From NCBI GenBank assembly GCA_048939995.1, contig JBHLOY010000005.1, forward strand, positions 1 through 64,000: a stretch of 64,000 nt of DNA. The letters are read 5' to 3'. Of this stretch, positions 1,507-31,078 are shown in pieces; positions within the stretch are counted from its first letter, which is position 1; every line of letters starts with the position of its first letter. The stretch is from Promethearchaeota archaeon (GTDB lineage Archaea; Asgardarchaeota; Lokiarchaeia; Sigyniarchaeales; SOKP01). The notes under the pieces are model-generated. The model saw only the letters and a program-made list of their open reading frames with translations, was not told the DNA's origin and did not search any database. Position numbers and translations under genes: made by a program.

Positions 1507-4500
1507 TTATATTTTTTCTTTTAATTTAAGCCTAGGAGCTAGACCTAAACTCATCATTTCTTGTAATAGCAATTTAAATGCATAGGAACAAACAACTTTT
1601 GAAATAATGGTCCCTTCACCACAAACAGGACAATATCGTTTGTCTCTATTTCGATCATATGTTGCCAACAATCCACATTTTTCACAAACTAAAATTACTG
1701 TTTTATCGGATTCATCAAGCAATCTCTCTTTCAATAACAATGCGGATCCGTGACCAACTAAACAATCTCTTTCCATCTCTCCGAAACGTAGTCCACCCTC
1801 ACGTGCACGACCCTCTGTTGGTTGTCTTGTTAATATTTGAACAGGACCTCTAGCTCTAGCATGAAGCTTATCTGCGACAAGATGATATAATTTTTGGTAG
1901 TAGATAGGTGCGCAATAAATCCCTGCTTCATATTTTTCACCGGTAATTCCATTATACATTACTTCTCTTCCGTTGAATTCAAAACCAGCTTCAACTAATT
2001 GTTCTTGTAGTTTAGTAATATCTTTCCATTCAAACGCAGTTGCATCTCCAAGTTTTCCCGTGGTACTTGCTATCTTTCCGCTAATTCCTTCAAATAATTG
2101 TCCTAATGTCATTCTGGAGGGCATAGCATGAGGATTTACAATAATATCTGGAATAACTCCAGAGGAAGTGAAAGGCATATCTTCTTGAGGTTGGATTAGT
2201 CCAAGAACACCTTTTTGACCATGACGGGAAGAGAATTTATCACCTAATTCAGGAATTCTTAAATCTCTTACTTTAATTTTTACTAGCTTATTACCATCAA
2301 CAGTCTCTGAGATAATTACAGTATCTACTATTCCTTTTTCATTATGTCTCATATTTTTAGAAGTTTCTCTTCTGTTAGGTTGCATTAATTCAAATTCTTC
2401 GTATGATTTAATGAATCTTGGTGGAGAAGTACGACCAATTAGTACATCTCCTCCATTGACGGTAGTCTCGGGCTCTATTATTCCATCATCTTCTGATAAC
2501 AATCTATACGATTCTGCTGACTTAAAGCCTCTAACCCCTCTTTCTGGAATCTCAAATTTATCAACCTCTCCTCCGGGATATTTTCTTTCCTCAGCATCAT
2601 AGGTTCTAAAAAAATGACTTCTGGCTAATCCACGATTTATAGAAGCCTTGTTGATAATTATAGCATCTTCAATATTAAAACCCTCGTAACTCATCATTGC
2701 AATAATAAAATTTTGTCCAGCAGGTCTTTTATTTATTCCAATAATTTCCATTGGGCTTGTTTTAACTAAGGGTTGTTGAGGATAGTGAAGTGTATGTCCT
2801 CTTGTATCAAGTCTCAAATGCATATTAGCTGCAAATAAACCTAATGCCTGTTTAACCATTCCAGCCTCATAAGTATTCCTAGGAGATTGATTATGTTCAG
2901 GGAAAGGAATTATAGAAGCGCAGATTCCTAAAATTGCTGCTGGGGAAATTTCCATATGGGTGTGTTCTGTAGTTATATCTTCTTCAAACATGGCAATATA
3001 TGCATTTTCCTCTTCTTCAGCATCTAAATATTCAATTACACCTTTCTGGATTAAATCCGACCAAAGAAATTTACCTTGTATTAACTTCTCAATATCCTCT
3101 TTTGAAATTAACAGTTGTTTGTTTTTTATAACAAACAAAGGTCTAGTTGCTCTTCCAGCATCACAATTAATTTGTATCTCCCTTGAATCATGATAATATC
3201 CAATATTAACATGTTGACCTATTTCTCCCTTTCTTCGTTTTTCTCTAAGTTGATTAATAAATGGATTATGTTTTTGGTGGATGCCTACTAATTTTCCATT
3301 TAAAAATACTTTAACTTTTGAACCCTTAACATTTTTAACCTCATTTATAGGAATTACTCCCAAATCAATAAGTATGTTTTCAATGATTCTCTCATCAGCT
3401 CCAACCGAAATTATAGAAGCTAGACCTAAATTTTTCACCAATCCACAATTCGGACCTTCAGGTGTTTCAGCAGGGCAAATTTTTCCCCATTGGGTAGGGT
3501 GTAAATCCCTAGCTTCAAAGTGAGGTTGACTTCTACTTAATGGAGAAATTACTCTCCTTAAATGACTTAAAGTACCAACATGGTTAGTTCTATTTAATAG
3601 TTGGCTAACGCCCGCTTTTCCCCCTACCCAATTTCCAGTGGCTAAAGCATGTCTTATTCTTTCAGTAATAACGTCAGCTCTTACTGCTGTTTTTATATTA
3701 GGGGCTCTCCCTCTCACGGCAGTCCTTTCCAATTGATACTTAATGTCTTTTACAAGGTTTAAGAATGCAACTCTAAATAATGAGGTAAATAATTCTCCAG
3801 CTAATTTTAATCTTTTATTTGCATAATGATCTTTATCATCTGGCTCTCTAAGACCCAAAGCGAGTTCCATAACTTTTTGAGCCATCTGTCCCAAATAATA
3901 GGCCTTTTTTATTCGATCCTCTTCCGAATTACCAATATGAGGCAAAAGATACCTATCTAATACTTGAAGTGCTCGACGAATACGATAATCTTTAGTTTGT
4001 CCTATCGCAACTCTCTTTCCAATATAATCTAAAGCGTTTTGTTGAGATTTTTCAGCATCTTTTAATACTTGAATTTCAGAAGCAACGTCTATAACAGGAA
4101 TTAATTCTTTTTGAATTTCCTCATTTTCGGATATAGCTTCAAATATCTCTCTATCTGAGTGTAATCCTAAAGCCCGCATAAGAATTGCTAGCGGGATCTT
4201 ACCTGGAACAGAAGGGAATGATACTCTTAAATTACCATCCTTCTTCCTTTCAATAGTAACTGGTGCTCGGAAGCCGCTTCTTGTTGAAAATACCTTAGCT
4301 TGGTGAGTAGCGCTAGAACTCCTACTGGCTTCTTCAGCAAGTATCCTATTAGGAGCTAAATCTTCCTGAGTCACAAGAACGCGTTCAGTTCCATTTATTA
4401 TAAAGTATCCTCCCGGATCTAAGGGATCTTCTCCCCGATTTATGAGTTCTTGCTCTGAGAGACTTTCTAAAGGACATCGACAGCTTTTAAGCATTATAGG

Positions 4501-25620: not shown

Positions 25621-26768
25621 AAAAAAAGATATTAAAGTCGAATGCACAAACTTACTTTATCAGAGGTAGAGGCATTCCAAAAGGATGTCAATTGTGTTTA
25701 AAAGGGGAAAAAACAGTTTTATTTCTGAATGGTATTTGCCAAAATCCAGCACATTGCTATTGGTATTGCCCAATTTCAACTGAAAGAAAAGGAAAGGAAT
25801 TTAGTTTTGCAAATGAAATTAAGATAAAAACTAATAAAGAATTACTTGATGAGATTAATAAAACTAAGGCAAAGGGAATGAGTATAACAGGTGGAGAACC
25901 TCTTAGTGAAATAAATTTTCAAAAAACGATTGATTTAATAAAGTATGTCAAGGAAAAAAAGGGGAACAAATTTCACATTCATCTATACACTAATGGAATA
26001 AGCTTTAGTGAAGAAAAAGCTAATAAACTAGCTCAAGTAGGCTTAGATGAATTAAGATTTAATCCTCCTGAAGAAAAATGGAATTTAATATCATTTGCGT
26101 TAAATATAGGAATTAAAGTCGGAGCTGAGGTACCAATGATTCCAAACGAGGAATATGTAATGCAACTCAAAAAATTTATTTTATATCTAGATAAAATTGG
26201 TGCTCATTTTATAAATATAAATGAATTTGAATTTTCTTTTCCTAATAGCAAATATTTAATTGAAAGAGGCTTTAAATTAAAAAGAGGTTCAATTGCTGCT
26301 GTAGAAAATAGTAAAGAAATAGCTCTTACTTTGCTGAAAGAAATTTACCCTAAAGTATCTTTAAAAATTCATTTTTGCACTACAAGGGCTAAAGATTATT
26401 GGCAATTAAAGGAACGATATTTAAGACGTGCAAAATCGATAAGAAAACCTTTTGAAGAAATTACTGAGGATGGATTACTAGTTTATGCTCAAGTTGAAGG
26501 AAGTAAGGATAATTTAAACAAACTTAATGAATTATTGTTGAATAAGATAAAAATGCCACAGAAATATATTTTTTATGATGAACAAAAGATAAGAATACCA
26601 ATAACTTTCGCTCTAGAAGAAAAGTTCATAGATTTACTAGATAATTATAAATTACAAGGATTTATAGTTGAAACAACTCCCTTTAGAGAGGAACAATACA
26701 CTCAAATAACAGAAAAAACTCCAATAAAGGTGTTTAAAGAAGAGATCGAATGTGATGGAAATAAATAA
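25617..26768 (+). CDS. radical SAM protein (COG2108-like)
   Basis: PKGCQLC.KGEK, CQNPAHCYWYC, ITGGEP, HIHLYT, GLDELRF. Confidence 0.88.
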   Translation: MKKKILKSNAQTYFIRGRGIPKGCQLCLKGEKTVLFLNGICQNPAHCYWYCPISTERKGKEFSFANEIKIKTNKELLDEINKTKAKGMSITGGEPLSEINFQKTIDLIKYVKEKKGNKFHIHLYTNGISFSEEKANKLAQVGLDELRFNPPEEKWNLISFALNIGIKVGAEVPMIPNEEYVMQLKKFILYLDKIGAHFININEFEFSFPNSKYLIERGFKLKRGSIAAVENSKEIALTLLKEIYPKVSLKIHFCTTRAKDYWQLKERYLRRAKSIRKPFEEITEDGLLVYAQVEGSKDNLNKLNELLLNKIKMPQKYIFYDEQKIRIPITFALEEKFIDLLDNYKLQGFIVETTPFREEQYTQITEKTPIKVFKEEIECDGNK

Positions 26769-27201
26769 AGTCAATTTGGAAGATTTAGAAGAAATTATGA
26801 GGATAGAGAACCAAATATTTAAACAGGATTCCTTTTCGAGACAAATGATGAAGAAATTGATTTTGCGAAATTCTTTATTTTTAAAACTAATAAAAAGACA
26901 AAAAGATCCAAAAATAATAGGCTATATAACTCTTATCCGAAGTAATAGAAATACCATTTGTATAATAAATTTTTCAATAAAAAAAGAATGTCAAAATAAA
27001 GGTCATGGTTCTTATTTACTACAAAATACACTAGAACTAATAAAAAAGTTTCAAGATATAAAGAAAATTATACTAAATGTTAATATAAAGAATGAAATCG
27101 CAATAAAGGTGTATAAAAAATTTGAATTCCAGATAGTTAAAGAAATTGAAAATTATTATAGTAATCATGAAACTGCTTATTTGATGGAAAAAATTCTTTG
27201 A
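26752..27201 (+). CDS. GNAT N-acetyltransferase (RimI/Ard1-like)
   Basis: QNKGHGSYLL, LNV...NEIAIKVYKKFEF, NYY...E.AYLM. Confidence 0.9.
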   Translation: MMEINKVNLEDLEEIMRIENQIFKQDSFSRQMMKKLILRNSLFLKLIKRQKDPKIIGYITLIRSNRNTICIINFSIKKECQNKGHGSYLLQNTLELIKKFQDIKKIILNVNIKNEIAIKVYKKFEFQIVKEIENYYSNHETAYLMEKIL

Positions 27202-27326
27202 TTTTCGTTCATTTTTAATGTTTTTCTATAAACTAAAACTTATAAATAAAAATTTTTATAATATCTGTAAAATCAAGATTATAATTTCCTCTCAGAAATT
27301 ATTAATTCAAAAGGAGTTGTGGATAA

Positions 27327-27479
27327 ATGCCAATTGATAAAGAGTTACAAAATGAGATTAAGAAGGGAATCACTCTCCAAAAGGTTAGTGAGGATGAACT
27401 GAGAAAAAGGGAAGAAGAAAAGAAGAAGAGAATGGAAGAACTTGAAAAAATTAAAGAAGCCTTAGGAGAAAAACAATAA
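27327..27479 (+). CDS. 50-aa microprotein with a WH2-like actin-binding motif and charged helical tail
   Basis: MPIDKELQNEIKKGITLQKVSEDELRKREEEKKKRMEELEKIKEALGEKQ; AAGGAG SD-like sequence at 27311-27316; T-rich tract after the stop; below the ORF-track size cutoff. Confidence 0.8.
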   Translation: MPIDKELQNEIKKGITLQKVSEDELRKREEEKKKRMEELEKIKEALGEKQ

Positions 27480-27611
27480 ATCTGTGTATTTTTGATTCAT
27501 TTTCCTTTTTTTATTTATGTTTTATAAATGAGCTTTAAAAACGTAAGCTTTTCTAATATTTATTCTTTAATTAAATTAGCAATATTCAATTTAAGGAAGT
27601 CGAATTGATTT

Positions 27612-28685
27612 TTGAAGATTCTTGAAATAGATAATAAAAATCAAGAAGTCATTGTTAAAATTGAAACATTAAATGATTTATGGACCCTTTATAATATCAT
27701 TTCTAGAGATGATTATGTTTCTACGCGAACATCCAGAAGAGTTGTATTAAGAGAAGGCACTAAAGGAGAGAGAAAAAATATGTGGATAAAATTAAAGGTG
27801 GAATCTATTTCCTTTCATGAATTTTCAAATAGATTAAGAATTAAAGGTACAATTAGTGAAGGTCCTGAAGATTTTGTAAGTTTTGGAACATACCATACTT
27901 TCAATGTCGAAGTAGGTAATACATTAAATATTATAAAGGATAAGTGGCTTAGAAGTGAGATAAAAAGGCTGAAAGAGTCTTCTAAATTTGAAGCAAATTT
28001 TCTCATTATTATAACTGCTATCGAAACCGGATTAGCAAATTTAGCACTTATTACTAATTTTAGTCATACAAAGATAGCAACAATTAAAAGAACAATACCG
28101 GGAAAAAGATATGAACAAATCCATCGAAATAAAGCTTACGAAGATTTTTTTAATGATATTTATAATGTATTAGAAGAGAATATTAAAAATATGAATATAA
28201 ATCTAATTATCTTCTGCGGTCCCGGAAATAGTAAAGACAGGTTTTTAAATTACCTCAAAGAAAAGAAACAGCCAAATTTTCTCTCTAAAATCAGTATTAT
28301 TCATGCTAGTTCAGGAACCGAAAGTGCGATATTTGAGATATTAAAATCACCCCAATTAAAAGAATTAAAAGAAAAAGTAAAGATACTTCAAGAAACAGAG
28401 AAGATTGAGAACATTTTTAACATTTTAGCAACTAATCCAGATTTAATTGCTATTGGAATTAAAGAAATCGCTACATTATCTAAAAGTGGAATAATAGATG
28501 AATTATTTGTTGCAGATATTTTATTGAGAGGTACCTCAAAAGAAAAAAAAAATGAACTTGAAGGGGTTTTAACAGATGTGGAAAATTCCGGGGGAAAGTA
28601 TTACATTCTAAGTAGTGAACAACCTACTGGTCAGCAAATTATTGATTTAGGAGATATAGTAGCTATTTTGAGATATAAACCTTAA
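27612..28685 (+). CDS. pelA: mRNA surveillance protein Pelota (Dom34)
   Basis: DLWTLYNII, FHEFSNRLRIKG, GTYHT, PGKRY, GPG, AILRY. Confidence 0.96.
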   Translation: MKILEIDNKNQEVIVKIETLNDLWTLYNIISRDDYVSTRTSRRVVLREGTKGERKNMWIKLKVESISFHEFSNRLRIKGTISEGPEDFVSFGTYHTFNVEVGNTLNIIKDKWLRSEIKRLKESSKFEANFLIIITAIETGLANLALITNFSHTKIATIKRTIPGKRYEQIHRNKAYEDFFNDIYNVLEENIKNMNINLIIFCGPGNSKDRFLNYLKEKKQPNFLSKISIIHASSGTESAIFEILKSPQLKELKEKVKILQETEKIENIFNILATNPDLIAIGIKEIATLSKSGIIDELFVADILLRGTSKEKKNELEGVLTDVENSGGKYYILSSEQPTGQQIIDLGDIVAILRYKP

Positions 28686-29851: not shown

Positions 29852-30475
29852 ATGAGCCCTATTATTACACATGAGGATGAACTTGAATTAGCAAGAACAG
29901 AAAAAGAGTTGGTTAATCAAATAAAAAAACTAGCAAAAATTCAAAGTGATCTTATTAACTCTCAAAAAAAATATGCAGAAAATCTTACTAAAGCAAACCT
30001 AGCCCGAGAAATACTTAATCGAACTTTTAGAGATGTAATTAAACAAATGCAGACTTTAGTTAGAGAGAAAAAATCAAATATTCAAGAAGAAGAGATAAGA
30101 TTATATCAAGATATTATTCATAATAATAATGAATACATTGAATCTAACAATAAATATATAGATGCAATTAAAAATCTGACTCTAAAGAAAGAATATTTTA
30201 TTGAAAAAAAAAATGAATTTGCAGATTCTTTAAATGAGGTTGCTAGTAGAAGAAGTGCGGTGATTAAAAAGGCTCTAAATGTTGAAAAAATGAAAAATAA
30301 ATTAATCGAAGGCGAAAAACTTAAAATCTTAGATGCAGAATTCGAAGATTATCAAAGAGATTTCGATATAGCCAGAGATGTATTAATAAAAAAAATCCAT
30401 CAATTTTTAGAAGTGAGAAAAGAACTTGACGAATTATGGATAGTATTAAAAAATTCAATTTCTAAATCTAGTTAA
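29852..30475 (+). CDS. all-helical coiled-coil protein, BAR-domain-like
   Basis: 207 aa of continuous heptad-rich helices with a basic turn (EKMKNKLIEGEKL). Confidence 0.6.
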   Translation: MSPIITHEDELELARTEKELVNQIKKLAKIQSDLINSQKKYAENLTKANLAREILNRTFRDVIKQMQTLVREKKSNIQEEEIRLYQDIIHNNNEYIESNNKYIDAIKNLTLKKEYFIEKKNEFADSLNEVASRRSAVIKKALNVEKMKNKLIEGEKLKILDAEFEDYQRDFDIARDVLIKKIHQFLEVRKELDELWIVLKNSISKSS

Positions 30476-30613: not shown

Positions 30614-31078
30614 ATGGCAGAAGAATTCGCAAATTTCATGCAAGAAACTAGAAAGGCTCCTCTCGAAGAAAAGTTGAACGCTTTTGGAGATATCGTTGAA
30701 AGGATGATGTCAATGATTCTTAGAATTCCTGACTTGTTAGATCAATCATTATCAACTATTAATCAGAAATTATCAACCCTAGAAACGCGAGTTAATACGT
30801 TAAATAGTGATATAGCTGCATATAAATCTACAGGAAGTGGTATATCACCAATTGTATCTGCGCCAAAAGCTCCTAACAGTGCTCCTCCTCCTCCTGGAGT
30901 TCCACCTAGTACGATGTCTGGAGCGGGAGCGCGCCCTCCCCTTGGAGGTCCACCACCACCACCCGGAGGTCCACCAGGAGGTCCAGGACCCGCTCGACCT
31001 GCTAGTCCAATAAGCTTAAGAGGTGCTATCATGAGTGAACTTAAACAACTGTTTGATAAACGAAAAACACAAAGTTAA
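30614..31078 (+). CDS. coiled coil, polyproline and C-terminal WH2/FAB-like helix protein
   Basis: N-terminal heptads; APPPPG and GPPPPPG; ends LRGAIMSELKQLFDKRK. Confidence 0.8.
   Translation: MAEEFANFMQETRKAPLEEKLNAFGDIVERMMSMILRIPDLLDQSLSTINQKLSTLETRVNTLNSDIAAYKSTGSGISPIVSAPKAPNSAPPPPGVPPSTMSGAGARPPLGGPPPPPGGPPGGPGPARPASPISLRGAIMSELKQLFDKRKTQS

Follow-up and report, generated by a model that had tools for sequence, protein, structure and literature searches.

What does the short open reading frame between a GNAT acetyltransferase gene and the pelota gene encode in the 64,000-nt stretch of a Promethearchaeota archaeon genome analyzed here (the window)? A sequence-only reading had proposed a free-standing WH2-motif peptide that binds actin monomers. 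A stand-alone 50-residue frame with a Shine-Dalgarno (SD)-like site and a downstream T-tract was indeed found in the window, with residues 5−20 exactly as that reading had quoted them, in the following arrangement:

26752–27201, GNAT acetyltransferase gene, upstream neighbor
27311–27316, + strand, SD-like aaggag 10 nt before the ATG; read from the sequence, function putative
27327–27479, + strand, gene of a 50-aa microprotein consisting of one WH2-like unit of ~45 residues; from the sequence, its orthologues and an expressed L. ossiferum orthologue
27489–27517, + strand, T-rich tract, candidate archaeal oligo-T terminator; read from the sequence
27612–28685, pelota gene, downstream neighbor

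Spacers of 125 nt on the GNAT side and 132 nt on the pelota side flank the frame. Purine-rich GG(T/A)G-type words similar to the SD-like site were found upstream of the orthologues at the loci inspected, and T-tracts followed the stop codon in most of the orthologues inspected, while a promoter and terminator scan with bacterial patterns gave no + strand match in this archaeal host. The host is a Loki-type Asgard archaeon, whose relatives are labelled Promethearchaeota/Lokiarchaeota, and it shares its order with Promethearchaeum syntrophicum and Ca. Lokiarchaeum ossiferum. The gene had been presented as unannotated; because the exact 50-aa protein is already present in NCBI and its relatives are annotated as 'hypothetical protein', it is better described as uncharacterized.

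The frame is a real gene and not a chance occurrence. The single 50-aa sequence matched 136 of the 151 genomes of the class at E ≤ 1, and a family profile built from 32 sequences (A2) matched, at E ≤ 0.01, 143 of the order's 153 other genomes, with a few weak matches among them; the same profile gave 0/7 in genomes from other orders of the class, a count that holds for these profiles only, and weak matches elsewhere in the phylum. Orthologous open frames of 48−60 codons occur in >100 genomes. Identity to same-family orthologues was mostly 65−90%, compared with 57−83% for pelota and 40−67% for the GNAT at the same loci, and at the closest 29 loci the peptide (79−90% identical) was better kept than either neighbor. 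Strong purifying selection acts on the gene: synonymous sites were saturated in most orthologue pairs (pS 0.5−1.0) at a pN of ~0.1, and the dN/dS was 0.05−0.14 where computable, apart from one near-identical pair with 0.54. The sequence-only reading had staked its proposal on the frame being conserved and expressed, and both were observed, the former across the order and the latter in L. ossiferum, whose orthologue was detected in 16/16 proteomes. Conservation, dN/dS and proteomics led us to reject a spurious frame, or the shadow of a gene on the opposite strand.

The order GNAT−ORF−pelota was retained in most loci examined, while in P. syntrophicum (DSAG12_00453 / QEE14640.1) and L. ossiferum (WP_371806818.1 / GNAMCCOK_02436) the orthologue is placed before ZPR1 and por genes. 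Since the gene sits elsewhere in both cultured species, its tie to pelota is not obligatory, and a functional link to pelota, which we considered, is not required. The retained position beside a RimI-like GNAT and pelota nevertheless favors an explanation in which the peptide is not an actin binder but a small helical module for some other partner, such as a translation or ribosome-rescue factor near pelota, or a protein-binding tag common to LRR/RHH regulators, with a WH2 likeness that is accidental, the sequence being short and of low complexity; the altered neighborhood in the cultured species and the gene's own SD-like site and T-tract speak against it. In an RNA table of P. syntrophicum, which was not used as evidence, DSAG12_00453 has a value of 347, similar to the 271−333 of its neighbors.

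The AlphaFold2 model of the 50-aa protein comprises a helix at residues 5−13, an extended stretch at 14−21 and a second helix at 22−49 (mean pLDDT 90.7; ~90 for helix 5−13), which correspond to three segments:

27339–27365, + strand, residues 5−13, short amphipathic helix, L7 and I11 conserved, then G14; from AlphaFold2, column conservation and alignment with the N-WASP WH2 helix
27375–27386, + strand, residues 17−20, L-Q-K-V, an LKKV-like extended motif; from column conservation, non-helical in the model
27390–27473, + strand, residues 22−49, long charged helix in which R35 and E38 are invariant and L39 is conserved; from the model and conservation

Among the 32 diverse orthologues, L7 was conserved in 27, I11 in 28 (I or L in 32/32), G14 in 30, L17 in 31, K19 in 26 and V20 in 27, whereas position 18, a Q in the 50-aa protein, was basic in 2/32, and some of them have LSPV, LEKP or LQSL in place of the motif. 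Thus, the conservation expected of the motif residues held for most of them and failed at position 18; likewise, the WH2 spacing claimed for residues 5−20 is identical, while the motif itself reads L-Q-K-V rather than L-K/R-K-T/V. Residues 5−13 are a putative WH2-type cleft-binding helix. A strict WH2-spaced pattern, written with the 50-aa ORF in view, had a single match in 2.9 M six-frame genome residues, namely this ORF; because shuffles of 1.2 M residues gave 0−1 matches, the pattern alone is modest evidence. In the cultured species the G-x-x linker is replaced by HDKSK/HDKSA, and the stretch reads EIEEHDKSKMAKV in P. syntrophicum and EIEQHDKSAMKHV in L. ossiferum, which we take, as a lead, to resemble the beta-thymosin F-D-K-S-K-L-K-K.

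The E/K/R-rich helix that had been noted behind the motif is present, but it is not a mere tail. R35 and E38, both invariant, lie in it, and when 78 units of stand-alone, tandem and fused proteins are compared, just two columns, L17 and R35, reach ≥90%; the C-terminal helix belongs to the repeating unit and is not a dispensable appendage. Such invariant residues outside the WH2 part are also a point for a partner other than actin. Because E/K/R dominate this single-helix-like segment and apolar residues are few, it has no clear coiled-coil core, and nothing in its composition suggests oligomerization. With the 50-residue model, Foldseek returned no match and VIA-align returned only generic helices at Z ≤ 4.

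Membership in the WH2 and thymosin families was evaluated at several levels. The Pfam models WH2 (PF02205, cut-off 23.1 bits) and Thymosin (PF01290, 24.8 bits) gave no match at the 50-aa locus in protein and genome searches, so the outcome of the PF02205 search that the sequence-only reading had suggested went against it, and an NCBIfam search returned nothing meaningful. The protein is not a formal member of either family, which again could be counted for a non-actin module. The Pfam WH2 model scored the tandem protein described below at 11.3 bits, below its cut-off, and matched 3/78 units (best E 0.007). Measured against published WH2 definitions (PMC10907219, PMC13481308, PMC9433394), the family has the short helix with two conserved Leu/Ile that is part of the definition (PMC10907219), and it lacks the motif with two basic residues, although L17, K19 and V20 are largely kept. 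The missing basic residue lowers membership rather than likeness, because known actin-binding variants deviate as well (Loki gelsolin LVDV). The thymosin comparison was similarly divided. Thymosins combine LKKTET with an extended PLP linker and a short pointed-end-capping helix; the 50-aa protein is a free-standing helix-motif-helix peptide within the ~40−55-residue thymosin range, but it has no PLP, and a 28-residue helix starts at residue 22. A gelsolin or profilin fold is not present in the same chain, which has 50 aa, two helices and no such Pfam match.

Profile searches retrieved WH2 proteins repeatedly. The top PDB match of A2 was a tandem N-WASP WH2 construct (E 2.4e-4), and N-WASP, Spire and MIM also appeared within the first 12 of 21 matches; these scores are sums over repeats, with a single-domain E of ~8, and designed TIM-barrel repeats score like the WH2 constructs. 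Of the seven PDB matches to a broader 78-unit profile, four were N-WASP or Spire. In a search of 1.84 billion proteins, A2 had 82 matches, and three of the four long out-of-family matches inspected were WH2-repeat proteins, whose matched short repeats scored 80.8, 40.8 and 18.1 bits with Pfam WH2 (two above 23.1). In the ESM Atlas, the nearest named clusters for both the 50-aa protein and its L. ossiferum orthologue were Thymosin PF01290 (0.87, lead level). From the PDB, a profile restricted to the N-terminal half retrieved no WH2 protein, and one of the thymosin-like subgroup retrieved nothing significant, with a thymosin-Cobl hybrid at E 3.2. The WH2 and thymosin signals are therefore consistent with each other and individually weak.

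The same unit was also found in other Asgard proteins. Proteins of 250−390 residues carry it in one to four copies, C-terminal to an Asgard profilin domain, and the profilin domain of these fusions matches the Asgard profilin structures 5zza (E 5.9e-10), 5zzb, 5yed and 7pbh. The full architecture, a profilin domain with one to four units and a small C-terminal domain, was not found described. Besides, the unit follows LRR domains and stands beside RHH-like or zinc-ribbon domains, without known tie to actin; these LRR-unit-RHH/zinc-ribbon proteins might link actin to DNA-binding regulators or reflect other partners of the unit. For the non-actin explanation the two kinds of fusion point in opposite directions, those with LRR/RHH proteins supporting it and those with profilin, together with the retrieval of WH2 proteins, pointing to actin.

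In L. ossiferum, P. syntrophicum and their kin, ~10 units with a 45−46-residue period make up a tandem protein of 480−500 residues, which in L. ossiferum is located as follows:

L. ossiferum genome 4726360–4727826, − strand, tandem protein of 488 aa, GNAMCCOK_04085

A profile of the tandem repeat unit scored the 50-aa ORF at 43.6 bits, compared with 13.3 for the best of 1000 shuffles, and on the host genome the ORF was its only significant match (E 5.9e-11), with no tandem protein there by this search. Since the repeat-unit boundaries were cut with A2, the match confirms homology while not being fully independent. Because AlphaFold modelled the tandem protein with a pTM of 0.16, its secondary structure alone was used: helices of ~37 residues alternate with 8−9-residue linkers that bear L-x-x-I/V. 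As a matter of speculation from this model, a 37-residue helix of ~5.5 nm would come close to the distance between actin subunits within one strand.

We then turned to the L. ossiferum proteomes and Lokiactin co-immunoprecipitation (co-IP) in Supplementary Table 2 of bioRxiv 10.1101/2025.11.30.690169, which lists internal tags with masses; tags were mapped by monoisotopic mass and gene order, with matching anchors at 04068 (270.50), 04077 (12.98), 04082 (47.31), 04132 (7.37), 04136 (36.60) and 02589 (29.89). The tandem protein was identified as GNAMCCOK_04085 because it is the third gene after 04082 and has the exact monoisotopic mass of 56.41 kDa. It ranked fourth among the non-contaminants in the Lokiactin co-IP (log2 4.53, adjusted p 0.002; 44 peptides, 366 spectra, 70.5% coverage), where actin itself reached log2 4.44 and the best gelsolin 3.97. 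It is not named among the hits discussed in the preprint (10.1101/2025.11.30.690169) or its Nature version (PMC13716822). The stand-alone orthologue GNAMCCOK_02436, called with 69 residues from an upstream start (8.24 kDa) and placed four genes before PorA 02440 (47.57), had a mean log2 abundance of 18.4 in the proteomes, where actin stood at 21.7, the profilins at 19.5 and 17.4 and the tandem protein at 19.2. Its co-IP enrichment, quantified in three actin and one IgG samples, was not significant (log2 0.57, p 0.042, adjusted p 0.105). Profilin 2 and profilin 1 reached log2 1.07 and 0.31 in the same experiment, which indicates that monomer binders enrich poorly in it. The co-IP was formaldehyde cross-linked (bioRxiv 10.1101/2025.11.30.690169), and its top ranks by mass matching include alcohol dehydrogenase, lysyl-tRNA synthetase, GTP cyclohydrolase I, a histone and uL1; given the cross-linking and these noisy top ranks, it supports, but does not prove, an actin association of the unit. 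A 57-aa zinc-ribbon-like protein (L. ossiferum 4512123-4512293, + strand) has a mass of 6.54 kDa that, by mass alone, fits GNAMCCOK_03900, with a co-IP log2 of 2.5.

These data bear on two of the alternatives. The insignificant enrichment of the stand-alone orthologue and the noise of the co-IP favor a non-actin partner, whereas the strong enrichment of the tandem paralogue opposes it, and with all of the above evidence considered, we regard this explanation as fairly unlikely. The peptide might also bind a divergent Asgard actin-related protein instead of the conserved Lokiactin. The host genome has four actin-family genes, and the orthologue was only weakly enriched with the Lokiactin antibody; against this, the same antibody strongly enriched the tandem paralogue, and the slow evolution of the peptide fits a conserved partner such as Lokiactin, which is 78−100% identical across the class. 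We consider a divergent target very improbable.

The best explanation is that the 50-aa protein is a Lokiactin-binding WH2-like peptide. That the protein binds actin in some way appears quite probable, as the WH2/beta-thymosin likeness is joined by the presence of a tandem paralogue in the Lokiactin pull-down, while for its mechanism we lean modestly towards monomer buffering of the WH2/beta-thymosin kind. Helix 5−13 would occupy the actin cleft, and L-Q-K-V would lie beside the acidic pair of Lokiactin (E28/D29 in the Lokiactin of the host genome). More tentatively, the 28-residue C-terminal helix (~4 nm) might reach towards the pointed-end face, where R35, E38 and L39 might make a second actin contact, such that one peptide would cover a monomer at both its ends. 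Because each chain has one unit, a buffering or sequestering role is favored; the peptide would hold G-Lokiactin beside profilin, and the tandem paralogue would gather or align several actin subunits. At ~1/10 of the actin abundance, the stand-alone peptide cannot buffer the whole L. ossiferum actin pool.

This sub-stoichiometry also counts for a peptide that binds actin in the WH2 mode and promotes assembly or acts on filaments, as a ciboulot/actobindin-type carrier feeding barbed ends, as a binder of filament ends or sides through its long helix, or as a nucleator whose long helix oligomerizes or docks on a scaffold. In the model, the C-terminal helix begins two residues past the motif, and its thymosin counterpart is much shorter; the tandem helices, by the estimate above, may match the subunit spacing. 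Tandem WH2 arrays are, moreover, typical of nucleators (PMC13481308). However, the peptide has one unit per chain, its E/K/R tail is without a clear coiled-coil core, and the tandem protein is missing from the host genome, so that we judge an assembly-promoting role to be unlikely and retain monomer buffering as the preferred mechanism.

Compared with known systems, the 50-aa protein shares with the WH2 of N-WASP, WAVE, Spire and MIM the short helix with L7/I11, the G and the L-x-K-V at identical spacing, and the Asgard unit likewise occurs as a single copy, in tandem and next to a profilin module. It differs in scoring below the Pfam cut-off, in having Glu for the first Leu of the WH2 'LL', in the variable first basic residue of LKKV, in the 28-residue helix with invariant R and E, and in being free-standing and archaeal. 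Like the beta-thymosins (thymosin beta4, ciboulot, actobindin) it is a free-standing helix-motif-helix of 50−55 residues, but without the ten-residue extended PLP linker and with a far longer second helix. Asgard two-domain gelsolins carry WH2-like LRRV, LKHV and LVDV near actin Asp25 and tolerate the loss of basic residues (PMC9433394); an Asgard L-x-x-V motif is common to both, which in gelsolin is an inter-domain linker, while the 50-aa protein has no gelsolin domain and has its own N-terminal helix. An archaeal functional precedent for actin sequestration is arcadin-2 of Pyrobaculum (203 residues), whose C-terminal helix sequesters crenactin by lying in the actin hydrophobic groove in reverse orientation (PMC5173319); arcadin-2 has no sequence likeness to WH2 or thymosin, unlike the 50-aa peptide with its WH2 order and spacing. 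On present evidence, the peptide would thus work in a WH2/beta-thymosin-like way, yet with a long conserved second helix unlike both.

Asgard actin regulation has seemed to depend chiefly on gelsolins and profilins (bioRxiv 10.1101/2025.11.30.690169; PMC13716822), and the words 'WH2' and 'thymosin' are absent from the main text of PMC13716822. In the openly accessible literature, the only Asgard WH2-like motifs found were gelsolin-internal linkers, and no free-standing WH2/thymosin-like Asgard protein was found there, in agreement with what had been assumed at the outset. If the preferred reading is true, the peptide, which occurs almost throughout its order, would together with the ten-unit array add a third class to the regulators of archaeal actin, and would bear on how Asgard archaea control the monomer pool for protrusion growth and crawling. 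Another question it would touch is whether WH2, around which eukaryotic nucleation factors are built, arose before the eukaryotes. An older WH2 toolkit would follow from the single peptide, the tandem array, the fusion to profilin and the look-alikes from two or more other Asgard classes; that the free-standing peptide is homologous to eukaryotic WH2 and thymosin, and that the toolkit predates eukaryotes, we put forward tentatively, at slightly less than an even chance.

One look-alike is a stand-alone protein of 56−60 aa (ELKREIKKGAKLxH ... LEKLRAEGK) present in 19/19 genomes of another Asgard class. Its N-terminal part aligned with A2 at an HHalign probability of 89% (E 2.2e-6), its end resembles the L. 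ossiferum orthologue, and its linker is longer and more actobindin/thymosin-like. A helical protein of ~315 aa, found in 17/18 sampled genomes from one family of another Asgard class, presumably Thorarchaeia, has an internal canonical ELKA..LGG.SLKK[AV] motif and no PDB or NCBIfam match. Such look-alikes may reflect ancestry shared with eukaryotic WH2 or convergence.

Two further genes of the window lie downstream of pelota:

29852–30475, + strand, 207-aa all-helical protein with no Pfam match above cut-off
30614–31078, + strand, 154-aa protein with an N-terminal helical/coiled-coil part, polyproline runs and a C-terminal SLRG(A/S)IMxELKxLF amphipathic helix

The 207-aa protein follows pelota and a radical SAM gene in several loci. 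The 154-aa protein resembles, as far as its sequence suggests, a WASP/VASP-type combination of polyproline with an actin-cleft helix. Its SLRG(A/S)IMxELKxLF helix was conserved in 5/5 genomes checked, both cultured species included, and in the LRR fusions the same SLRxxIMxELK helix stands ahead of the WH2-like unit.
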